Shown here: positions 11,725 to 47,953 of the stretch, piece after piece | Position numbering within the stretch: the stretch's first letter is position 1 | How the letters are laid out: every line of letters begins with the position of its first letter | NCBI GenBank assembly: GCA_963704165.1 | Contig: CAVPHD010000004.1 | Coordinates: forward strand, 581,487 to 645,486 | Reading direction: 5' to 3' | Origin: an uncultured delta proteobacterium | GTDB lineage: Bacteria > Myxococcota_A > UBA9160 > SZUA-336 | DNA: 64,000 nt | Program-made: the position numbers and the translations under genes | The notes under the pieces: model-generated | What the model was told of the DNA's origin: nothing | The model's input: the letters and a program-made list of their open reading frames with translations, nothing else | Databases searched by the model: none

Positions 11725-12393
11725 ATGGCGGCGGAGGTTCACACCTTGGTGTCGCGACGTTGGACCGGGATGGCGCTTGCCGTCGCGCTTTGGGCGATCG
11801 CTCTGCCGGCAAGCTCGGTCGAACTTTCGAGCGCGAGCTACCGGATCTTGGGCTCGAGCCTGAGCGGTGGAAGCGATGTGGCCATGACCAGCACCGCACC
11901 GAGTCCCCGGATCGGCGCGCTCGGCGGCTCGATCGGGCAGTCCGAGGCGCTCGGGTTCTCCGGCAGCCTGCTGACCTTGCGCACGATCGCGCCCGGTTTC
12001 TGGCCGATCCTCGGGGGCGGCTTCCCGACGCTCGACGTCGATGCCGACGCGATCGCGGCCTACCGTGACAACTGCCCGTTCAGCTACAACCCCGCGCAGA
12101 CCGACGGCGGCGGCATCCTGACCGCGTCCGCGGACGGGATCGGGGACGCGTGCCAGTGCGCGGACGTGGACGACAACGGAGTCGTCGACGATCTCGACAT
12201 CGAGGCGTATCGCGAGGCGCTCGCGGACCCGATCGCTCTGGGGCTGACACCCGCCGGCGTCGCGAAGTGCTCGGTGATCGACAGCTCCGGGCCTTGCGAG
12301 GTGCTCGACGTCGCCGTGATCGTCCGCGCGCTCGAGCCGACGCCGCTCCTGCCGGGAATCGATCAGGTCTGCACCGCCGCCAGCCCGCCGTAG
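11725..12393 (+). CDS. Secreted protein with GSIGQ..GFW domain, TSP3-like repeat and dockerin-like end
   Basis: Signal peptide; GGSIGQ...PGFW; DNCPFSYNPAQTD, DGIGDACQCADVDDNGVVD. Confidence 0.7.
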   Translation: MAAEVHTLVSRRWTGMALAVALWAIALPASSVELSSASYRILGSSLSGGSDVAMTSTAPSPRIGALGGSIGQSEALGFSGSLLTLRTIAPGFWPILGGGFPTLDVDADAIAAYRDNCPFSYNPAQTDGGGILTASADGIGDACQCADVDDNGVVDDLDIEAYREALADPIALGLTPAGVAKCSVIDSSGPCEVLDVAVIVRALEPTPLLPGIDQVCTAASPP

Positions 12394-25663: not shown

Positions 25664-26043
25664 GGCTTGTAGGCCACGCAATCGATCTCGACGAACGCGC
25701 CGAGCGCGAGCGCCGAGCAGCCGACGGTGATGCGCGCCGGCGGGTCGCTCGGAAAGAACTCGAGGTAGGCCTCGTTCATCTCGCCGAACTTCGCCATGTC
25801 GGTGACGAAGACGTTCACCTTCACGACGTCCGAAAGCTCCGCGCCCGCGCCGCGCAGGATCGACTGGATGTTCAGGATCGTCTGGCGCGTCTCGGCCTTG
25901 GCGCCGCCCGGGACGAGCTCGAACGAGCCGGTCTTCGTGCCGAGCGTGCCCGACACGAAGATGAAGCCACCGGCGCGCGTGGCGTGAGAGAAGGCCTTCA
26001 ACTTGCCGAGCTCGGGAACGTTGATCTTGCGGATGTCGGTCAT
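25660..26043 (-). CDS. RidA/YjgF family protein
   Basis: FIFVSG, DVVKVNVF, PPAR, VEIDCVA. Confidence 0.92.
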   Translation of the reverse strand: MTDIRKINVPELGKLKAFSHATRAGGFIFVSGTLGTKTGSFELVPGGAKAETRQTILNIQSILRGAGAELSDVVKVNVFVTDMAKFGEMNEAYLEFFPSDPPARITVGCSALALGAFVEIDCVAYKP

Positions 26044-26069
26044 GGGAGCGCGATGGTACCATCGAACGC

Positions 26070-26468
26070 ATGAAGCTTGGCGGTGTTCACCACGTGTCGA
26101 TCAACGTCCACGACGTCGAGCTCACCGGCCGCTTCTACACGGACGTGCTCGGGCTCGAGGTGCTCCCCCGGCCCGACTTCCCGTTCAAGGGCCTGTGGCT
26201 GCGCGCGGGCGGCCAGCAGATCCACCTGATCGAAGTCGCGGATCACCATGCGCCCGAAGGCCAGCACTTCGCGTTCGGCGTCGACGACATCGACTCGGTC
26301 TGCGCCGCGCTCGAGGCGCGCGGCGTGAAGGTGAGCGCGCCGATGATCGTGCCGGGTGCGGGACGTCAGGCGTTCTTCCGCGACCCGTCGGGGAATCTCG
26401 TCGAGCTGAACCAACCGCGAGGGGTGGATCCGGTCGGCGCGCGCGAAGAGCGGCGCCCGGGCACTTGA
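26070..26468 (+). CDS. VOC/glyoxalase family protein
   Basis: HHVSI, FYTDVLGL, HFAF, FFRDPSGNLVEL. Confidence 0.9.
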   Translation: MKLGGVHHVSINVHDVELTGRFYTDVLGLEVLPRPDFPFKGLWLRAGGQQIHLIEVADHHAPEGQHFAFGVDDIDSVCAALEARGVKVSAPMIVPGAGRQAFFRDPSGNLVELNQPRGVDPVGAREERRPGT

Positions 26469-26758
26469 GCGCGGACGGCGACATCGCGTCGAACGCGGCG
26501 GAGAAGCTGCGAGCGCTCTCGGCGCGCCGCTTCCGGCTCGCGATCACGCTGACGGCGCTCGTGATGATCGTCTACTTCGGCTTCATCGCACTCGTCGCGT
26601 TCGATCCGGGTCTGCTCGCCCTGCGGGTCGTGCCCGGACTGACGCTCGGCATCCTGCTCGGAGCGCTGGTGATCGTGCTCGCGTGTCTGTCGACGCTGAT
26701 CTACGTGTACTGGGCGAATCGGCACTACGACGACGCGCTCGAGCGCCTGAAGGGCTAG
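26465..26758 (+). CDS. DUF485 (YjcH-like) small membrane protein
   Basis: Two TMs, YFGFI...IYVYWANRHYD; directly upstream of actP. Confidence 0.85.
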   Translation: MSADGDIASNAAEKLRALSARRFRLAITLTALVMIVYFGFIALVAFDPGLLALRVVPGLTLGILLGALVIVLACLSTLIYVYWANRHYDDALERLKG

Positions 26759-26761
26759 CGC

Positions 26762-28304
26762 GTGGGCACGCAGATCGGCGAGCCGAACCTGATCGCGATG
26801 GCTTCTTCTTCGTCTTCATCGCGATCACGCTCGGCGATCACCTGTTGGGCCGCGCGCCGCACCCGCACGACCGAGCAGTTCTACGCCGCGGGGCGCAAGG
26901 TGACCGCCGGCCAGAACGGCTTCGCGCTCGCGGGCGACTACATGAGCGCGGCGTCGTTCCTGGGCATCGCGGGGCTCGTCTCGACGACCGGGCTTCGACG
27001 GGCTGATCTACTCGACAGGCTGGCTGGTCGGCTGGCCGGTCGTGCTCTTCCTGATCGCGGAGCCGCTGCGCAACCTCGGCCGCTACACCTTCGCCGACGT
27101 CGTGGCGCTGCGCTTCCGGCAGACACCGGTGCGGATCGCCGCGGCGTTCGGCACGCTCGCGACCGTGATCTTCTACCTGATCGCGCAGATGGTCGGCGCC
27201 GGGGGCCTGATCCGGCTGCTGTTCGGGATTTCGTACGAGCTGTCGGTGACGATCGTCGGCGTCGCGATGCTCGCCTACGTGCTCTTCGGCGGGCATGATC
27301 GCGACGACCTGGGTGCAGATCGTGAAGGCGGTGCTGCTGCTCGCGGGCGCGAGCGCTGCTCGCGGTGCTCGTGCTCGCGCGGTTCGACATGAATCCGCTC
27401 GACGCTCTTCGCCGCGGCCGCGGACTGTACGGCGACGCCGTGCTCGCGCCCGGCAAGCTCGTCTCGAATCCGCTCGACGCGATCTCGCTCGGCATGGCGC
27501 TGATGTTCGGCACCGCGGGGCTGCCGCACATCCTGATGCGCTTCTACACCGTGCCGGACGCGCGCGCGGCGCGCACGAGCGTCTTCTACGCGACGGGGCT
27601 GATCGGCTTCTTCTACCTGATGACCTTCGTGCTCGGCTTCGGCGCGATGGTGCTCGTCGGCCCGGCTGCGATCCGCGCGGTCGACGCGGGCGGCAACATG
27701 GCGGCGCCGCTGCTCGCCGAGCTGCTCGGCGGCACGCCGTTCCTCGGCTTCATCTCGGCGGTCGCGTTCGCGACGATCCTCGCGGTGGTCGCGGGCCTCA
27801 CGCTCTCGGGCGCCGCCGCGCTCTCGCACGACCTCTGGGTCAGCGTCGTGCGCGGCGGACACGCGGACTCGCGCGAGCAGCTGCTGCGTCGCGCGCCTCG
27901 CGACGGTCGTGCTCGGCCTGCTCGCGATCGCGCTCGGCATCACCTTCAAGGGCCAGAACGTCGCGTTCATGGTGTCGCTCGCGTTCGCGATCGCGGCGAG
28001 CGCGAACTTCCCGGCGCTGCTGCTCTCGATCTTCTGGGGTCGCTGCACCACCATGGGCACGGTCGCGAGCATGGTGACGGGCACGGTGTCGACGCTTCTC
28101 TTGATCTGGTTCTCGCCGACGATCCAGCTCGAGATCCTCGGCGCCGACTCCGCTTGGTTCCCGCTCAAGAACCCCGCGCTCGTCACGATTCCGCTCTCGT
28201 TCCTGACCGCGATCGTCGTCTCGCTGCTCACGCCCGAATCCGGCACGGCTTCGAAGTTCGCCGAGGTCCAGCGACGCGGGCACCTCGGGAGGGCGGGGGA
28301 GTGA
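26762..28304 (+). CDS. actP: ActP-like sodium:solute symporter (cation/acetate), multiple frameshifts
   Basis: [56 protein letters not shown] in successive frames. Confidence 0.85.
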
Positions 28305-29656
28305 AGCGGGTGCGCGTCTTGATCCTCGGCGCCGCGGGGCGCGACTTCCACTACTTCAACATCGTGTACCGCGACGATCCCTCGAGCGAGGTCGTCGCGT
28401 TCACGGCCGCGCAGATCCCGGGGATCGCGACGCGGAACTATCCCGCCGTCGCTCGCGGGACCGCAGTACCCCAAGGGAATCCCGATCGTGGACGAAGCCG
28501 AGCTCGAGCGGATCTGCAAGACGCACGAGGTCGATCGCGTCGTCTTCGCCTACAGCGACTCACGCACGCCGAGGTCATGCACCTCGCCTCGCGCGCGCTC
28601 GCCTGCGGCGCCGACTTCGTCCTGCTCGGACCGCGCGCGCACCATGCTTCGCTCGCGCCGGCCGGTGATCGCGGTCTCGGCCGTGCGCACGGGCTGCGGC
28701 AAATCCCAGACCTCGCGCTGGATCGTGCGACGCCTCGCGCGCGCGGGTCTGCGCGTCGCCGCGTTGCGCCACCCGATGCCCTACGGCGATCTCGAGCGCC
28801 AGCGCGTGCAGCGCTTCGCGACCCGCGCCGATCTCGAGGCCGCCGACTGCACGATCGAAGAGCGGGAGGAGTACGAGCCCTACGTCGCGGCCGGAGCCGT
28901 GGTCTTCGCCGGCGTCGACTACGCCGAGATCCTCGCGCGGGCCGAGGCGGATGCCGACGTTCTGGTCTGGGACGGCGGCAACAACGACTTCCCGTTCCTC
29001 TGGCCCGGACCTGCACATCGCCATCGTCGATGCGCTGCGCCCGGACCAGGTCGACGACGCACCACCCGGGCGAGGCGGTGCTGCGGATGGCCGACGTCGT
29101 CGTCGTGAACAAGGTCGATGCCGCCGCCGAGCGCCGACGTGCAGCGCGCTGATGCGATGCGCGCGCGCGTGTCGAACCCGCGCGCGCGGATCGTGCGCAC
29201 CGCCTCGCCGGTCGCTCGCTCGACGACGCCGGACGCCGTGTCGGGGAAGTCGCGTGCTCGTCGTCGAGGACGGCCCGACCCTCACCCACGGCGGCATGTC
29301 GTACGGCGCGGGCTTCGTCGCCGCGACGCGCGCCGGTGTCGCCGAGATCGTCGACCCGCGCGCCGTCCGCCGCGCCCGGGATCGCCGAGGTCTACGCGCG
29401 CTACCCGCACATCGGCCGCGTGCTTCCCGCGATGGGCTACAGCGAGGCGCAGCGCGAGGCGCTTCGCCGGACGATCGAGGCCTCGAAGGCCGACGTCGTG
29501 GTGTCGGCGACGCCGATCGATCTCGCCTCGCTGCTCGGCCTGACGAAGCCCGTCGTCCGCGTCCGCTACGAGCTCGAGGAAGTCGACGCGCCGGGGCTCG
29601 GCTCGATCGTCGATGCGTTCGTCGCCGGACACGCGTCCGGCGGGCGGGGGAGCTGA
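28301..29656 (+). CDS. arcE: COG2403-type P-loop protein, probable arginine synthetase (ArcE), multiple frameshifts
   Basis: [51 protein letters not shown]; precedes OTC and carbamate kinase. Confidence 0.75.
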
Positions 29657-29658
29657 GC

Positions 29659-30594
29659 GTGCTGCGGCACCTGCTTCGCACGAGCGACCTGACGCCCGGC
29701 GACCTCGAGCACCTGCTCGCGCTCGCCGCTGCGTTCAAGTCCGACCCGCAAAGCGCGCGCACGCGCCTTCACAACGAGTCGGTCGTGCTCTACTTCAACA
29801 AACCCTCGACGCGCACGCGGATCTCGTTCGAGACCGCAGTGGCGAGACTCGGGGGGACGCCGATCGGTGTCGGGGCGACGGATCTTCAGCTCGGCCGCGG
29901 CGAGACGATCGAGGACACCGCGGCCGTGATCGGCCGCTACGCTCGCGCCTTCGTGATCCGCACCTTCGCGCACGAAGACGTCGAGCGCTTCGCCCGTGTC
30001 TCGACGATCCCCGTCGTGAACGCGCTCACCGACGCGCACCATCCGTGCCAGAGCCTGGCGGACCTGCTCGTCCTGCGCGAGAAGACCGGCGCGCTCGCGG
30101 GCCGGAAGCTCGCCTACGTCGGCGCGGGCAACAACGTGACGCACAGCCTGCTCGAGGCCTGCGCGCTCGCGGGCGTGCACACGGCGGTCGCCACGCCGAC
30201 CGGCTACGCACCCGATCCCGCGATCGTCGCGCGCGCGCGCGAGCTCGCGCGCGAGAGCGGCGCGCGGATCGAGATCGGCACCGACCCGCGCGAGGCGGTG
30301 CGCGACGCGGACGCGGTCTACACCGACACGTGGCTCTCGATGGGGGATCCGGAATCGGAACGCGCGAAGCGGCTCCGGGCGCTCGGCCCGTACCGGGTCG
30401 ATGCGCGGCTCATGTCCTGCGCGCGGCCCGCTGCGATCTTCATGCACTGCCTGCCCGTGCACCGCGGCGAAGAGGTCGACGCCGAGGTCGTCGACGGTCC
30501 GCGCTCGGTCGTCTTCGCACAGGCCGAGAACCGGCTTCACACCGCCGTCGCCGTGCTGTCCGCGCTTCTCGACGGCGCGCTCGAGGGCGCGTGA
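29659..30594 (+). CDS. arcB: Ornithine carbamoyltransferase (likely catabolic)
   Basis: KPSTRT, HPCQ, YTDTW, MHCLP, QAENR. Confidence 0.92.
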   Translation: MLRHLLRTSDLTPGDLEHLLALAAAFKSDPQSARTRLHNESVVLYFNKPSTRTRISFETAVARLGGTPIGVGATDLQLGRGETIEDTAAVIGRYARAFVIRTFAHEDVERFARVSTIPVVNALTDAHHPCQSLADLLVLREKTGALAGRKLAYVGAGNNVTHSLLEACALAGVHTAVATPTGYAPDPAIVARARELARESGARIEIGTDPREAVRDADAVYTDTWLSMGDPESERAKRLRALGPYRVDARLMSCARPAAIFMHCLPVHRGEEVDAEVVDGPRSVVFAQAENRLHTAVAVLSALLDGALEGA

Positions 30595-31514
30595 TGCGCG
30601 TCGTGGTCGCGCTCGGCGGGAACGCGCTCCTTCGCTCCGGCGAGCGCCCCGAGGTCGAGGTGCAGCGACGGAACCTGCGCCGCGCCGCGGGCGCGATCGC
30701 GGAGATCGCGCGCGAACACACGCTGGTGTTGACTCACGGGAACGGCCCGCAGATCGGCTTTCTCGCGCTCCAGTCCGAGGCCGCGGCCGAGGCGTCGGGT
30801 ATCGGCGCGCGCCCCGACCCGCTCGACGTGCTCGGCGCGCAGACCGACGCCGTCATCGGCTACCTGATCGACCAGGAGCTCGCACCGCTCCTGCCCGGCC
30901 GCGAGATCGCGACGCTGCTGACGCAGGTCGAGGTCGATCCCCGCGACCCCGCGTTCGGCACGCCGACCAAGCCGATCGGCCCGGTCTACGACGAAGCGCG
31001 TGCGCGCGCGCTCGCGGCCGAGCGCGGCTGGTCGATCGGCGAGGTCCACGGCGGATTCCGCCGCGTCGTCGCGTCACCCGAGCCGAAGCGCATTCGCGAG
31101 ATCGGCGTGATCCGCCGGCTCGTCGACTCGGGCGTGATCGTGATCTGCGCGGGCGGTGGCGGAATCCCCGTCGCCGTCACCGAGTCGGGGGCGCTTCGCG
31201 GCGTCGAAGCCGTGATCGACAAGGACCTGACGAGCGCGCTCCTCGCCGTCGAGCTCGCCGCCGACGTGCTCCTGCTGCTGACGGACGTATCGGCGATCTA
31301 CGAGGACTGGCCGAACCCCGCGCAACGCCCGATCCGCCGCATCACTCCCGCCGCCCTCCGCGCCCGCACGCTCCCCGCCGGCTCGATGCGCCCGAAAGCC
31401 GAAGCTGCCTGCCGCTTCGCCGAACGCACCGGCAAGCGCGCCGCCATCGGCGCCCTCGAAGACGCCGCCGGGCTGCTCGCGGGAACGGCGGGGACGAGTG
31501 TCGGTGCCGAGTGA
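30594..31514 (+). CDS. arcC: Carbamate kinase
   Basis: VVALGGNAL, THGNGPQIG, PTKPIG, RRVVASP, GVEAVIDKD, GSMRPK. Confidence 0.95.
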   Translation: MRVVVALGGNALLRSGERPEVEVQRRNLRRAAGAIAEIAREHTLVLTHGNGPQIGFLALQSEAAAEASGIGARPDPLDVLGAQTDAVIGYLIDQELAPLLPGREIATLLTQVEVDPRDPAFGTPTKPIGPVYDEARARALAAERGWSIGEVHGGFRRVVASPEPKRIREIGVIRRLVDSGVIVICAGGGGIPVAVTESGALRGVEAVIDKDLTSALLAVELAADVLLLLTDVSAIYEDWPNPAQRPIRRITPAALRARTLPAGSMRPKAEAACRFAERTGKRAAIGALEDAAGLLAGTAGTSVGAE

Positions 31515-32019
31515 TGTACGGGGTGAGCGGCGGGTATCGGCGCGAGGAAGGTCGAACCTGCGACCATGAACCGGCTCGGATCGCCCGGACGGCTCGTTGC
31601 GCCGTATTGCCGTGGGGGGTGCGTCAGGGGTACGCTGATTCCCGAGAGCCACACGGTTTCGATGTTTCGTGTCGCGACACGCATCGTCGCCTTCGGCAGG
31701 GGCGTTGCTTCTCTCGATCTGTTCCCTGGGCTCTTCGGCCGTCGGGGCGATTCGACGGCGTTCCAGCTCGGATGCAAGAAGGTGATCCCGCATCATGCCG
31801 ATCGTCGCGCAGCTGGTCGTGATTGCACTTCGCGTTGCAGCGCTGTGCGCGTGTATCGTGTACCTCGACGCCTGTTAGCAGGTCGCTGACGAAGCAACTC
31901 GAAACGAGTGTGCGCGTGTCGCCGTCGTCGTGAAGCGGACGTCGGGGAGTGCCGGTCGAGGGTGGGCGAGTCGAACGAATCCGCAGCGGACGTTGTTCTA
32001 CCAGCGAACCAGCTCTTGC

Positions 32020-32447
32020 TCGCCTTGATGGGTGGCTACCGGCTCGACGCGTCCGGCGTTCTCGACGCGAGCTGCGAGAGCTTCGTGCCGATCGAGGTCG
32101 CGATCGATCCGGGCGAGTACACGCGGCGGCTGCGAGCGCAGGATCCAGGCCACCGAGCCGTGGACTTCCGGGGCGAGAAGCGCAGCAACGCGACGCATCG
32201 TTCGGCGACGGATCCCGAGCGTCGATTCGCGTCGAAGGGAACGACGGGAAGCGGAGCGATTCCTGGGTACACGGTGAACGCGTTGATGGAGAACCGACAC
32301 AGGATCTTGTTGGGCATCGGTATCGAGATCTTTCGATCGTCGGCGTCGGAGACGGAAGGATTCAAGAGACTGCTGCAACGTGCGCGCCGGCGCCTGCGGT
32401 TCAAGCCGAGCACGATTGGCGCGGAGAAGGGTTGGGCATCCGCGTGA
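32020..32447 (+). pseudogene. IS5/IS1182-type transposase internal fragment
   Basis: DFRGEKRSNATHRSATDP...GYTVNALMENRH; N- and C-termini absent. Confidence 0.8.
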
Positions 32448-33590: not shown

Positions 33591-33694
33591 GGAGCCAGCA
33601 CTATATCGCCGATGGCGGCGTGGAATCCGCCGATACCCGCCTGACTCGCGGCCTCTGCGAAGTGCTGATCACCGAGGCGCTCGCGGCCGGGCTC

Positions 33695-33843
33695 TTCCTG
33701 TCTGCATAGTGCCTTTCCCCGAACCCGACGGGCGGCACGTTCCCGATCGAGCTGCGCGGCCCGCGGTTGTCGAACCCGTCGACCCACGCAAGTGTCGCGA
33801 ACTCCACGTCTTCGACGTTCCCCCACGGACCGCTGTGCCGACG
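33695..33843 (-). pseudogene. IS3-family transposase C-terminal remnant
   Basis: GPWGNVEDVEFATLAWVDGFDNR...IGNVPP. Confidence 0.75.
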
Positions 33844-33937
33844 AGGCGTACGCCACCCTGGCAGCGCCCACTCAGGCGTACCGCCGAAAGCGCCAACCAC
33901 CGAAACAACTCATCCGAGTCGCTTCGTCAGCAGGCTG

Positions 33938-38743: not shown

Positions 38744-41530
38744 TCACGGCGCCGCCGCCGTGCACGACGCGGCGGTTCCCGCCGCGCACGGGAGCGGGCA
38801 GGGGGCGCACTTCGGACCGGGCATCTTGGCGTGGAGCTCGCGGAAGCGGGCGAGGTCGGGAGACGAGATGTGGGCGCCGTTCTCGTCGAGGTCGAACGGC
38901 GCGCAGCGTGAGCTGCCGGCGGTTCCGCAACTGGCGGAGGCGCGCTCGTGGCCGGTGGAGCTGCGGAATTCCCGCAGGTCGGCTGTGCTGACGGGCATTC
39001 CGGCGACGCCGACGAACTTCGCGTCGCAGACGTTGCCGTAGCCGTCGGCATCGTCGTCGCGCTGGCGTCCGGTGAGGACCGCCCAGGGATTCGCTTCGAG
39101 GAAGCCGGGGGCGGCGCGGGAGTTCGGGTCGTTCACGCAGTTGTCGCAGGCGTCGCCGACCCCGTCTCCGTCGCCATCGTCCTGCAGCGGGTTGGTGGTG
39201 AACGGGCAGTTGTCGCTCGAGTGCGGGACGCCGTCACCGTCGGGGTCGCAGGCGTCGCCCTCGCAGCGCAGCGCGTCGAACGCGACGCCGCAGTCGGGGC
39301 ACTTCGGTCCGAGCCGTGGGGTCGGCAGGAGCGCGCCCGTCTGCGGGTCGAGGAGCAGACGGAAGAAGGCCGTGGCGTCGGGGCAGTCGTAGACGCACGC
39401 ACCGAGCGTGAGGTCGCGTCCGTCCAGGTCGAAGCGATCGCAGGGAAGGGACCGTGAAACGCCGCAGTCGTTCGATGTCACGAGCTTTCCGTGACTCGCG
39501 GTGAGATCGGCCAGGGCGTTGGCGCCGACGACGCCGTCGTTGTCGAAGTCGGGGTCGCAGGCGTTGCCGTAACCGTCGGCATCGTCGTCGCGCTGGCCGC
39601 CGGTGGTCGTGCGGCCGGCCACCGGCATGGCCGCGGGGTTGGGGTCGTACACGCAGTTGTCGCACGCGTCGCCGATCGAATCGCCGTCGCTGTCGGTCTG
39701 GTTGCCGATCCGCGGGACCGCGGCCTGCGCCCGGCCGTTCGCGACCGTCGGGCAGTTGTCGCACGCGTCGGGCATGCCGTCGCCGTCGGAGTCGGGGCTG
39801 GGACCGATGCAGCGCGAACAGGTGTACTGGCCATCCCCGTCGGGGTCGATCGCGCTCGAGATGCAGTCGGGGTCGCAGCGGTCGCCGAACGCGTCGTGAT
39901 CGAAGTTGCCCTGGTCGGCGTTCGCCTGCGCGGGGCAGTTGTCACGCTGCGCCTCGATGCCGTCGCCGTCCGTGTCGTAGACGGAGTCCGGCTCCTGGCC
40001 GACGCTCACGCGGAAGCTGGCCCAGTTCACGAACACGGGCGAGCTGATCACCGCCGTCGAGTCCTCGTCGGCACCGCACGCCGTCGGGCCCTCGCAGATC
40101 CGCACGTACGCGGCGCCACCGGTGCTCGGAAACGTGACCGGTGAGAAGTCGATCTCGCAGACGTCGCCGCTCGCGTCGTTTCGCGCGCAGCAGCTGGTGC
40201 AGGAGCGCAGCACCGTGCCCTGCTGATTCACGACCTCGACGTGCCCGAGCCGCCGCCGTGGCGAGGCGCTGGCGCCCTGGCTGCGCGGGTCGTTCGTCGC
40301 TCGCACCTTGAAGCGCACGCGGCCGTCGGGTGCGTCGAGCAAGCCGCCCATCTGCGCGCAGGCGGCGCCCGTGGTCAGGCCACATCCCTCGATTTCCAGG
40401 CGCGGCTTGAAGGCGCTCGAGTAGTAGCAGCGCCGCTCGCGCATCGCGCCGATCAGGTGCGAGCGATTCCACGGCGCGCCCCCGGCCTCGACCCAGCAGA
40501 TCGTCGCGCCGGTTCGCAGCAACGGCGGGTGTTCACCCGCACAGGTCGACATCGTCTGGTGTAGCTCGTGCACGTCGCTCCCGTAGGTCGGGAACAGACG
40601 GTGGCCCCGCGCGAGATACCTCTGGTAGGTGACCTCCCAGTTCGGTCCGGTCGCGTACTGCTTGCCGACCTCCATGCCGTAGATCGACCGATCGGAGAAG
40701 CCGTGGGGACGGTAATGCGGGTGCCAGTTCTGACCGGACGTCGTCGTGGGATCCTCGGGATGGGCTCGGATCAGCACGCCGTCCCCGCCGCCGTGATCGA
40801 CGCTGCTGCGGTGGATCCACCGGTACAGATCGCCCTCGTTCGCACAGCGGTCCGCTTCCGGAACCGGCACGGTCTGCTCGGGCGACTCGCGAGAGATGCG
40901 GCAGACGGTGTCGGTGTCGCCCGCGGGAATCACGACGGTGTGCGGATTCTGGCCGTTGGTGTATTCGCGTCCCGAGAACGCGACGAACTGGCCGGGCGTG
41001 TTCTTCAGGTTCGCGGCGGTCGAGTGCGAGAGCGCTTCGTTCGACCCGGTCGATCCGCTGCAGGGCTGATCGGCGGGGCCGCCGGTCCCGCAGTTCGTCC
41101 AGTCGGGGAAGCCGGACGTCGTCGGAATCACCTGGTAGCCGTACCTGAGGTCGATGCCGCGCGCGGGACCCGGCGCGATCCAGTCGAGGAAGGTCTGATT
41201 CTGCGCGCCGGCGCTGATCGCCCAGTCGTGGTACGAGAGATTTCCCCAGTCGTACCCGGCGCTTCGAATCGCGTCGTAGACGGCGATGTTCAGTCCGCGT
41301 TCGTGCGGATCGCCCAGGCCCGAATCGGTGCACACGCCGCGGGCGAGCTTCAGATGGCTGGCGGCCGATCCGGCGTGGCGGTGATCGTCGCCGGCGAGCG
41401 GCGTCAGCGTCGAATAGCTCGGCAGAGGATCCGCATGAACCGCGCCGGCCAGGCCGCCAATCGCGAGTCCCGCCCACGCCGCGCGCCGCAGACCTCTCGC
41501 AAGCCGAACGAATCCCCAGAGCCCGTGCAT
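38744..41530 (-). CDS. Secreted PHP-like metallohydrolase with thrombospondin type 3 repeats
   Basis: GDDHRH, YHD, GREYT, AHP, GSDVH; many DGDG..D.CDNC repeats. Confidence 0.72.
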   Translation of the reverse strand: MHGLWGFVRLARGLRRAAWAGLAIGGLAGAVHADPLPSYSTLTPLAGDDHRHAGSAASHLKLARGVCTDSGLGDPHERGLNIAVYDAIRSAGYDWGNLSYHDWAISAGAQNQTFLDWIAPGPARGIDLRYGYQVIPTTSGFPDWTNCGTGGPADQPCSGSTGSNEALSHSTAANLKNTPGQFVAFSGREYTNGQNPHTVVIPAGDTDTVCRISRESPEQTVPVPEADRCANEGDLYRWIHRSSVDHGGGDGVLIRAHPEDPTTTSGQNWHPHYRPHGFSDRSIYGMEVGKQYATGPNWEVTYQRYLARGHRLFPTYGSDVHELHQTMSTCAGEHPPLLRTGATICWVEAGGAPWNRSHLIGAMRERRCYYSSAFKPRLEIEGCGLTTGAACAQMGGLLDAPDGRVRFKVRATNDPRSQGASASPRRRLGHVEVVNQQGTVLRSCTSCCARNDASGDVCEIDFSPVTFPSTGGAAYVRICEGPTACGADEDSTAVISSPVFVNWASFRVSVGQEPDSVYDTDGDGIEAQRDNCPAQANADQGNFDHDAFGDRCDPDCISSAIDPDGDGQYTCSRCIGPSPDSDGDGMPDACDNCPTVANGRAQAAVPRIGNQTDSDGDSIGDACDNCVYDPNPAAMPVAGRTTTGGQRDDDADGYGNACDPDFDNDGVVGANALADLTASHGKLVTSNDCGVSRSLPCDRFDLDGRDLTLGACVYDCPDATAFFRLLLDPQTGALLPTPRLGPKCPDCGVAFDALRCEGDACDPDGDGVPHSSDNCPFTTNPLQDDGDGDGVGDACDNCVNDPNSRAAPGFLEANPWAVLTGRQRDDDADGYGNVCDAKFVGVAGMPVSTADLREFRSSTGHERASASCGTAGSSRCAPFDLDENGAHISSPDLARFRELHAKMPGPKCAPCPLPCAAGTAASCTAAAP

Positions 41531-45920: not shown

Positions 45921-46967
45921 CTACCGCTCGCGGGAATCCGGGTAGGCGTGCAGCTTCCCCTGCCAGTCTTCGACGACGACGGTGTCGCCGTCGGCGGACT
46001 CGCGCAGGTAGCCCGGACCGATCGGCACCTTCCCCGCGCCGCCCGGAACGTCGAGCACGTAGCTCGGCTGACACAGTCCCGAGACCCGCCCGCGAAGCGA
46101 ACGGACCAGCGCCTGACCGGCCTCGATCGAGGTGCGGAAGTGGCCGGTGCCCGGCGCGAGATCCGCGTGGTGCAGGTAGTACGGCTTCACGCGCATGGCG
46201 ACGAAGCCGCGGAACAGCGCTTCGAGCGAAGCCGGGTCGTCGTTCACGCCCGCGAGCAGCACCGTCTGCGAGAGCATCGGCAGGCCCGCGTCGACGAGTC
46301 GCGCGACGGCGACGCGCGTCCGCTCGTCGAGCTCGCGCGCGTGATTCGCATGCAGAACGATCCAGACCGCCTTGCGCGCGCGCAACGCCGCGACGAGCTC
46401 CGCCGTCACGCGCTCGGGCTCGACCGCGGGGACGCGCGTGTGCACGCGGATCACGCCGAGGTGTGGGATCTCGTCGAGCCGTCGCACGATCTCGGCGAGC
46501 CGTCGCGGCGAGAGGATCAGCGGATCGCCGCCCGAGAGGATCACCTCCCAGATGCGCTCGTCTCGAGACACGTAGCCGAGCGCTTCGTCGAGCTCGGCGG
46601 GCGAGAGCGACTCGCCGCCCGGCCCGACCGCCTCGCGCCGGAAACAGAAGCGGCAGTAGACCGGACAGGCGTGCGTGGGCTTGAGCAGCACGCGATCGGG
46701 ATAGCGGTGCGTGATTCCCTTCACCGGTGTGAAGGCCGCGTCGCCGATCGGATCGGAACTCTCGTCGGCCGAGATCCGCAGCTCCGCTTCGGACGGGACG
46801 AACTGCCGCGCGATCGGATCTGCGGGGTCCTCCGGGTCGATCCGGTCCTGCACGGAGGGTGTGAGCGCGACCGCCCAGCGCGACGCCACGCGGTGTAGCG
46901 CGTCGAGCCGCTCGGCGGGAACGAGGCCCGCCTCGACGAGCCGATCGAGTTCGCGGATTCGTTTCAT
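45921..46967 (-). CDS. epmB: Lysine 2,3-aminomutase (EF-P beta-lysylation, EpmB)
   Basis: HRYPDRVL, CPVYCRFCFR, SGGDPL, PYYLH, PGGAGK. Confidence 0.92.
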   Translation of the reverse strand: MKRIRELDRLVEAGLVPAERLDALHRVASRWAVALTPSVQDRIDPEDPADPIARQFVPSEAELRISADESSDPIGDAAFTPVKGITHRYPDRVLLKPTHACPVYCRFCFRREAVGPGGESLSPAELDEALGYVSRDERIWEVILSGGDPLILSPRRLAEIVRRLDEIPHLGVIRVHTRVPAVEPERVTAELVAALRARKAVWIVLHANHARELDERTRVAVARLVDAGLPMLSQTVLLAGVNDDPASLEALFRGFVAMRVKPYYLHHADLAPGTGHFRTSIEAGQALVRSLRGRVSGLCQPSYVLDVPGGAGKVPIGPGYLRESADGDTVVVEDWQGKLHAYPDSRER

Positions 46968-47953
46968 TCGTCGGCCACTGGCGCCCAGAGCACGTCCTCG
47001 ATCCTTTCGGCCCCGGTCGCGCACATCACGAGCCGGTCGAAGCCGAGCGCCATGCCCGCACTCGCAGGGAGCCCGTGTTCGAGCGCGGCCAGGAAGTCGT
47101 CGTCGATGGGATAGCGCTCTCCGTAGAGCCGCGCCTTTTCGGCCAGGTCGCGCTCGAAGCGGCGGCGCTGCTCGGCCGCGTCCGTGAGCTCCGAGAAGCC
47201 GTTCGCGATCTCGAAGCCCGAGACGTAGAGCTCCACGCGTTCGGCCACGCGCGCGTCGCCGGGTTTCGCGCGTGCGAGCGCGCCGAGCGCGATCGGCCAG
47301 TCGTACAAGAGTGTCGGGCGGCCGACGCCGAGCTTGGGCTCGATCTCGTTCAAGAGCACCCGGAAGAAGCGATCCTCGTACGTGTCGCCCGCGCCCGCCT
47401 CGAGCGCGAAGACGTCGAGCCCGGCGTGCTTCGCGAACGCGTCCGGCACGCTGAGCCGCTCCGCGGGCTGGCGCGCATCGCACTCGATCCCGCGGTGGAC
47501 GAGCCGCTCGCGTCCGCCCGCCTCGAGCGCGACGCGCAGGAGCGCCTCGCAGTCGTCCATCAGCGCGGTGTAGTCGCAGCCCGCGCGGTACCACTCGAGC
47601 ATCGTGAACTCGGGATGGTGGGTCGAGGAGCGCTCGGCGTTCCGGAACGCGTGCGAGAGCTGGAACAGCCGGGGAACGCCCGCGACGAGCAGCTTCTTCA
47701 TCGCGAACTCCGGGGACGTGTGCAGGTAGCGGGCGCGCGCTCCCGGCCGACCCGGGGCGCGGAGCGAGGTCTCGAAGGCGAACAGGTGCGGCTCGAGCCC
47801 CGGCGAGATCTGGAGCGCCGGGGTTTCGACCTCGACGAATCCCGCGCTCGCGAAGTGCGCGCGCAGTCCCGTCGCGATCCGCGCGCGCACCTCGAGGCGG
47901 GCGCTTCGCTCGGCGAATCGCTTCGGGTGCCACCAGGGCCGCGGGTCGTCCAC
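46964..47953 (-). CDS. epmA: EF-P lysine aminoacylase EpmA
   Basis: EVETP, YLHTSPEFAMKKLL, HHPEFTMLEWYR, EIANGFSEL, GFDRL. Confidence 0.95.
   Translation of the reverse strand: MDDPRPWWHPKRFAERSARLEVRARIATGLRAHFASAGFVEVETPALQISPGLEPHLFAFETSLRAPGRPGARARYLHTSPEFAMKKLLVAGVPRLFQLSHAFRNAERSSTHHPEFTMLEWYRAGCDYTALMDDCEALLRVALEAGGRERLVHRGIECDARQPAERLSVPDAFAKHAGLDVFALEAGAGDTYEDRFFRVLLNEIEPKLGVGRPTLLYDWPIALGALARAKPGDARVAERVELYVSGFEIANGFSELTDAAEQRRRFERDLAEKARLYGERYPIDDDFLAALEHGLPASAGMALGFDRLVMCATGAERIEDVLWAPVADE

Follow-up and report, generated by a model that had tools for sequence, protein, structure and literature searches.

Which route of arginine breakdown is encoded where genes for an ornithine carbamoyltransferase (OTC) and a carbamate kinase follow a broken gene of GTPase type, and could such a route work? 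The question is raised by the final 64 kb of contig C4 in the assembly of an uncultured delta proteobacterium (G000; 3.87 Mb, 12 contigs, 84% complete, 1.55% contaminated), a stretch that we call the window. Here arcE, OTC and carbamate kinase lie as three co-oriented, tightly coupled genes on the forward strand (28301-31514). The original prediction had described this coupling, which we found as described, and relatives of the first gene are indeed named GTPase or cyclic 2,3-diphosphoglycerate (cDPG) synthase, in keeping with the GTPase, by its account of COG2403 type, that it had placed there. It had also proposed that the bacterium uses an arginine synthetase route, and sequence comparison supports this proposal: we put the probability at roughly 80% that the three genes form a working arginine synthetase pathway yielding two ATP per arginine, the breaks in arcE being most likely assembly errors.

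Identity of the first gene

The reference enzyme is TK2200 (ArcE) of Thermococcus kodakarensis, which is specific for L-arginine, converts arginine, ADP and Pi into citrulline, NH3 and ATP with an equilibrium constant (Keq) of about 10, and bears little similarity to cDPG synthetase (PMC11032458, Michimori, Yokooji, Atomi 2024). Reference arcE genes were located by searching 62 Thermococcus-genus genomes with the published TK2200 forward primer. Nine of the 62 matched with at most one mismatch, and three loci (L103, L105, L108) match both TK2200 primers (Table S5 of PMC11032458) without any mismatch; the forward primer had no match in a collection of genome contigs. A degenerate N-terminal motif scan gave 65 named loci, including a Thermococcus metagenome-assembled genome. 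Relatives were collected with a 121-residue piece of the window arcE, which drew in 7999 of the 8000 candidates scored; the top-ranking ones are about 447 amino acids (aa) long and carry the source names 'predicted GTPase', 'GTPase' or 'cyclic 2,3-diphosphoglycerate synthase'.

Compared as a read-through with X at its breaks, the window gene shares 252 of 433 aligned residues (58%, score 1218) with L103, and across L103, L105 and L108 identity ranges from 57.5 to 58.4% over 433 residues (score about 1200). Against two Thermococcales cDPG synthetase genes (L094, L097) the score was 49, over 94-152 residues only; L094 was confirmed as a cDPG synthetase by its match to PDB 9sxb (E 2e-187). An intact relative (P0003) is 54% identical to the Thermococcus gene at L072 (506 bits, E 0.0). 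The published threshold for an arcE homologue is a BLASTP E < 1e-100 and a length > 380 aa (PMC11032458). The window gene aligns with its full-length TK2200-type counterpart over 433 residues at 58% identity, and the corresponding E-value is that of P0003, not of the broken gene.

In a quick IQ-TREE maximum-likelihood tree of 33 rows, only two of them cDPG synthetases, these two are separated from the 31 ArcE-like rows (including the window gene and L103), and the dividing branch is about 10 changes per column long (SH-aLRT 100). The window gene grouped with those of G003 and G007 (support 95) within a clade of 15 rows from class relatives (99), and this bacterial clade and the Thermococcus clade form distinct sub-branches of the ArcE-like rows. 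Of 137 columns invariant across 125 family sequences plus L103, 135 are kept in the window gene and the other two fall on X breaks, in a test that is lenient to moderate given a family set made up mostly of close relatives of the query. By sequence, then, the window gene is ArcE, as had been supposed, and not a cDPG synthetase; its function is presumed from the assayed orthologue, and its putative substrate specificity from overall identity and gene context. Pfam and NCBIfam hold no ArcE family and returned just weak GTPase matches.

Frame breaks in arcE

In three-frame translation arcE is seen as pieces over 28301-29656. A frame-shift-aware alignment to P0003 covered 445 of 447 residues at 84% identity, with eight one-base shifts and no in-frame stop, and alignments to five intact relatives (80-85% identity over 435-445 residues) gave the same eight shifts, seven of them insertions and one a deletion. 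These net frame-shifting indels lie near 28448, 28560, 28640, 29005, 29053, 29130, 29250 and 29365. The DNA alignment with arcE of G003, a member of the same genus, shows about 14 single-base events, 13 of them insertions, when a neighbouring -1/+2 pair is counted as one event and a -1/+1 pair and a 3-base gap at the gene start are dropped. It shows more events than the protein alignment because two insertion triplets (+1+1+1 at ~29147-29162 and ~29210-29229), six events in all, restore the frame. The fragmentation by indels claimed beforehand was thus borne out, but the count obtained by protein alignment was too low. The longest run at any indel site is 3, i.e. there are no long homopolymers. 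Programmed frameshifting was ruled out by the large number of sites, the lack of long runs and the unbroken relatives.

We then surveyed frame breaks across G000, using 306 open reading frames from 20 stretches of same-genus G009 and G010, of which 190 passed the filters (identity >= 60%, near-full cover, <= 900 aa). In G000, 25 of the 190 sampled genes (about 13%) were frameshifted, with 38 shifts over 185 kb (33 of +1, 2 of +2, 3 of -1) and one stop; about four of the 38 lie near gene ends and could be reference faults. The genes adk, aspS, eno, ispH and gpmI are split, each without a second copy, icd, mdh, mutS and mutL are likewise frameshifted, and carB, a second OTC and an agmatine deiminase gene are also in pieces. 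A cell generally needs adk, aspS, eno and ispH. Since no organism could carry all these broken genes, the G000 assembly has insertion-type errors, and any split-gene finding in it needs the frameshift survey as a control. The errors cluster elsewhere too: eight genes have two or more shifts (2.8 expected), and the agmatine deiminase-family gene (G000:C1:86660-87655), in four pieces, is a second indel hot spot.

Over 353 codons shared with four unbroken relatives, the arcE copy itself carries eight private amino-acid changes, compared with 9, 18, 10 and 12 in those relatives. Its third codon positions differ at three times the rate of the first or second ones and have a GC content of 0.93. The actP-like gene ahead of it is broken by similar indels. 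In G003 the same actP-arcE GTGA junction precedes an open arcE frame. Taking the genome-wide survey, the kept residues and the open G003 frame together, these indirect tests make it very likely that the breaks are assembly errors, as the original prediction had assumed, and not the mark of a pseudogene.

Predicted pathway and other arginine genes

The second gene of the cassette scores above cut-off with OTC profiles (PRK00779, 387.6 bits, cut-off 306; TIGR00658, 363.7, cut-off 280.85) and carries STRT, HPxQ, DxWxSMG and HCLP, each checked in the sequence, which we take to be OTC motifs. The third scores 420.9 with the carbamate kinase profile PRK12354 (cut-off 361) and 346.8 with TIGR00746 arcC, about 11 bits under the cut-off of 358.25. 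The actP stop overlaps the GTG start of arcE (GTGA), 2 nt separate arcE from OTC, and OTC and the kinase overlap in TGATG, a spacing that would fit a translationally coupled operon. The three genes form the tail of a longer run of overlapping genes, with a glyoxalase-like gene, DUF485 and the actP-like permease ahead. No sigma-70-like promoter was found in a scan of 25900-32000, and one terminator-like hairpin (31688-31704, +) is at chance level (2 found, 1.7 expected).

Judged by its assayed orthologue in T. kodakarensis, ArcE would convert arginine, ADP and Pi into citrulline, NH3 and ATP. OTC would phosphorolyse citrulline to ornithine and carbamoyl phosphate, and carbamate kinase would move the phosphate to ADP; for both enzymes the family is shown and the direction presumed. 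The net yield would be two ATP per arginine, versus one by the arginine deiminase route. This catabolic direction is likely because the genome has argG (868 bits, cut-off 657), argH (555, cut-off 279.5), carB (over cut-off) and the second OTC (C3:230-231 kb), and PMC11032458 similarly reasons that ArcE is likely catabolic where argG and argH are present.

The arginine deiminase gene arcA was not found in the 84%-complete G000, which agrees with its predicted absence: PF02274 had no match there, in a search whose control was positive in 3 of 14 genomes, and tblastn with the ArcA of G009 reached a best E of 0.65. The tblastn control, a target carrying 2% random indels, was detected in five of five trials (E <= 8e-32). 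No arginase was found in G000. An agmatine deiminase-family gene lies on another contig (C1) behind an N-carbamoylputrescine amidase-like gene, and the pair points to a separate route from agmatine to putrescine.

Distribution among relatives

We compared 60 relatives, which as kin are not independent, and the counts are therefore descriptive. arcE occurs in 16 of the 60 and carbamate kinase in 14, and arcA gave two clear and two weak matches. Thirteen of the 14 kinase-positive relatives have arcE; the fourteenth, G009, has arcA-OTC-CK (CK, carbamate kinase). The kinase adjoins arcE in 11 of the 16 arcE-positive relatives, directly after it in ten and after OTC in G058, where the arcE-OTC-CK order of the window recurs at 77/73/70% identity with all three genes unbroken. 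OTC is present in 60 of 61 genomes, and most arcE-positive relatives use a distant one. Clustering with arcE is not universal: of the 65 loci that the motif scan gave in other phyla, five have OTC or carbamate kinase within 3 kb (3 of 34 with full flanks).

Within the genus arcE is patchy (2 of 11), and arcA-type and arcE-type sets seem to have exchanged parts of the pathway. In G007, arcE occupies the same site (L109, G007:C79:1-1260), upstream of the same ABC transporter block, without OTC or carbamate kinase behind it; a more distant pair of OTC (34%) and kinase (55%) lies on another contig (L150, G007:C44:869-2795), and no arcA was found in this genome. G003 combines arcE behind actP (L005) with an arcD-like antiporter and arcA (L024), and carriers of both arcA and arcE have been called rare (PMC11032458). 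The notion of an arginine synthetase in place of arcA would fit G000, where arcA was not found in the 84%-complete assembly, but it is not a rule of the genus. Other settings also occur: at L118 and L119 (G045, G059) arcE-CK is flanked by a CBS/DksA-finger gene on one side and a formate-dehydrogenase-like molybdopterin oxidoreductase set on the other, and at L115 (G043) it stands behind an amino-acid dehydrogenase and a 2-oxoacid:ferredoxin oxidoreductase set.

Alternative explanations

Several findings weigh against a working pathway with assembly-born breaks. The genome background is 0.17 indels per kb, and actP and arcE together have at least 14 in 2.9 kb. This density, about 30-fold the background, has a P of about 2e-10 under uniform errors, so that one has to suppose a local hot spot of errors. 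The source reads were not found (five sequencing runs share no more than 6% of the words, and short contigs from them belong to other organisms), and the evidence on the indels is therefore indirect. As G000 is 84% complete, arcA may be unassembled, and G003 has arcA together with arcE. There is no ArcE structure among the PDB sequences, and the accessible text of PMC11032458 defines no catalytic residues for ArcE. Finally, three of the 16 arcE-positive relatives (G025, G051, G060) have no carbamate kinase match, and ArcE is therefore not always tied to full catabolism. Their loci (L120, L117 and L110, respectively; genomes 92-97% complete) are candidates for a non-catabolic use of ArcE.

If the indels were real, arcE and actP would be recent pseudogenes, perhaps of a mismatch-repair mutant, and the pathway would be dead or start from citrulline only. 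The restriction of the dense indels to these two genes, with OTC and carbamate kinase clean, points this way, as do the shifts in mutS and mutL in the assembly and the patchiness of arcE in the genus. However, arcE has no stop codons, keeps its invariant residues and shows no excess of amino-acid change, and the preponderance of insertions matches that of the whole genome (35 of 38) at sites with runs of at most 3. Since adk, aspS, eno and ispH are broken alike, and a clean OTC and kinase are expected at the background rate (P 0.72), we consider such decay unlikely.

Alternatively, ArcE might mainly supply ornithine or carbamoyl phosphate, or the enzymes might run from carbamate kinase over OTC to ArcE, fixing ammonia into arginine instead of earning ATP. 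With a Keq near 10, both directions ran in T. kodakarensis, whose pathway yields a proline precursor and carbamoyl phosphate (PMC11032458; PMC13260591), the latter where carbamoyl phosphate synthetase (CPS) is missing (PMC13260591, Michimori et al. 2026). The lack of an arcD-type antiporter in the operon and of a detectable arginase in G000 would also suit such a role. Yet the genome has argG, argH, carB and another OTC, and a supply role for a missing CPS is inapplicable here given carB. A coupled carbamate kinase would moreover drain carbamoyl phosphate to ATP, and the kinase could not replace CPS in T. kodakarensis (PMC13260591). We therefore regard a supply or reverse role as improbable beside the ATP-yielding arginine synthetase pathway.

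It is very unlikely that the OTC-like and kinase genes serve agmatine or putrescine catabolism, with the ArcE homologue acting on another guanidino compound. The agmatine deiminase-family gene in G000 and the separation of the window's ArcE clade from that of Thermococcus would allow it, but that gene sits on another contig beside the amidase-like gene, the putrescine carbamoyltransferase model TIGR04384, at 247.7 against a cut-off of 500, falls short of the OTC models, and ArcE of T. kodakarensis rejected agmatine (PMC11032458). A cDPG synthetase or metallochaperone GTPase beside OTC and kinase by chance, as the names of some relatives and weak matches of P0003 to cDPG synthetase 9sxb (E 1e-4, against 2e-187 for a true one), HypB and CobW might suggest, is refuted at the sequence level by the gulf between scores of 49 and 1218, by the same weak matches of Thermococcus ArcE and by the kinase gene that adjoins cDPG synthetase genes in Thermococcales.

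Upstream permease and flanking DNA

Table 1 Cassette genes and adjacent features in the window
Feature	Position	Strand	Remarks
DUF485 small membrane protein	26465..26758	+	upstream of permease
ActP-like sodium/solute symporter	26762..28304	+	broken by 6-8 one-base indels, 0 stops
arcE, putative arginine synthetase (ATP-forming arginine deiminase) orthologue	28301..29656	+	~447-451 aa read through; P-loop GCGKS; broken in assembly
Ornithine carbamoyltransferase (arcB role)	29659..30594	+	311 aa, unbroken; genome's second OTC
Carbamate kinase (arcC)	30594..31514	+	306 aa, unbroken; sole carbamate kinase found in G000
IS1182-family transposase remnant	31908..32447	+	E 8e-8, far below cut-off; downstream of operon, outside pathway

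The actP-like gene (Table 1) has ActP/monocarboxylate symporter as its best profile, below cut-off, and is 86-87% identical to its orthologue in G010, where arcE was not found. The permease is probably a neighbour and not an arginine importer; no arginine/ornithine antiporter of the arcD type was found in the operon. We think it quite unlikely that the permease was co-opted to import arginine or citrulline, with the six-gene unit running both ways alongside argG and argH: two ATP per arginine under starvation, and aspartate-free fixation of ammonia into arginine when energy is plentiful. G010 is syntenic on both sides of the locus without the cassette, and together with the IS1182 remnant downstream this marks the slot as variable.

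Elsewhere in the window, 33601-33900 resembles a transposase end without a family match, presumably of IS3 type. At 45921-47953 (-), a lysine 2,3-aminomutase-like radical SAM gene adjoins a gene with a class II tRNA-synthetase catalytic domain (Pfam matches), a pair that we take to be likely EpmB/EpmA for modification of elongation factor P. Secreted-looking proteins with thrombospondin type 3 repeats are encoded at 38744-41335 (-) and ~11878-12393 (+); the former gene adjoins a sigma-54 regulator and an ABC exporter, in a block kept in G010 and G007. The contig end (61260-64000) holds PIN-domain, AAA-domain and WYL-domain genes, possibly a defence or toxin-antitoxin island.

Comparison with known systems

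Bacterial arcE homologues in many phyla, and arcE next to arcB or arcC in some genomes, have already been published (PMC11032458). What the locus adds is a further host of the arginine synthetase route published in 2024, not a new system. A literature search that left subscription journals largely outside found neither an assay of a bacterial ArcE nor a link between ArcE and Myxococcota; as far as it shows, a GC-rich bacterial lineage is added to a pathway assayed in one archaeon only. arcE and carbamate kinase each occur in roughly one in four of the genomes sampled from the class, far more commonly than arcA. Because curated libraries lack an ArcE model, annotations label the genes 'GTPase' or 'cDPG synthase' and overlook arginine catabolism. 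The importance is modest, and the unbroken relatives, not the damaged window copy, are the ones suited to expression.

With ArcE, ArcB and ArcC of T. kodakarensis the window shares the same three enzymes, 58% identity of ArcE over nearly its full length and an arcA that was not found. In contrast to the adjacent window genes, TK2200, TK0871 and TK2158 have locus numbers that place them far apart, and the window host is a GC-rich bacterium, by the source names of relatives likely one of the Myxococcota, with argG, argH and carB, which T. kodakarensis lacks; its arcE follows an actP-like permease, and its pathway is a predicted one. From the cDPG synthetases (PDB 9sxb, 8ork, 8oru), distant homologues with weak similarity in the P-loop region, the window gene differs by about 28% identity over those short stretches only, a separate clade and other gene neighbours. 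Compared with the deiminase pathway arcABC(D), OTC and carbamate kinase stand downstream in the same order and the first gene is swapped, as the arcA-OTC-CK set of G009 illustrates, whereas the first enzyme here is a P-loop protein without relation to ArcA, which would save one further ATP, in an operon without arcD.

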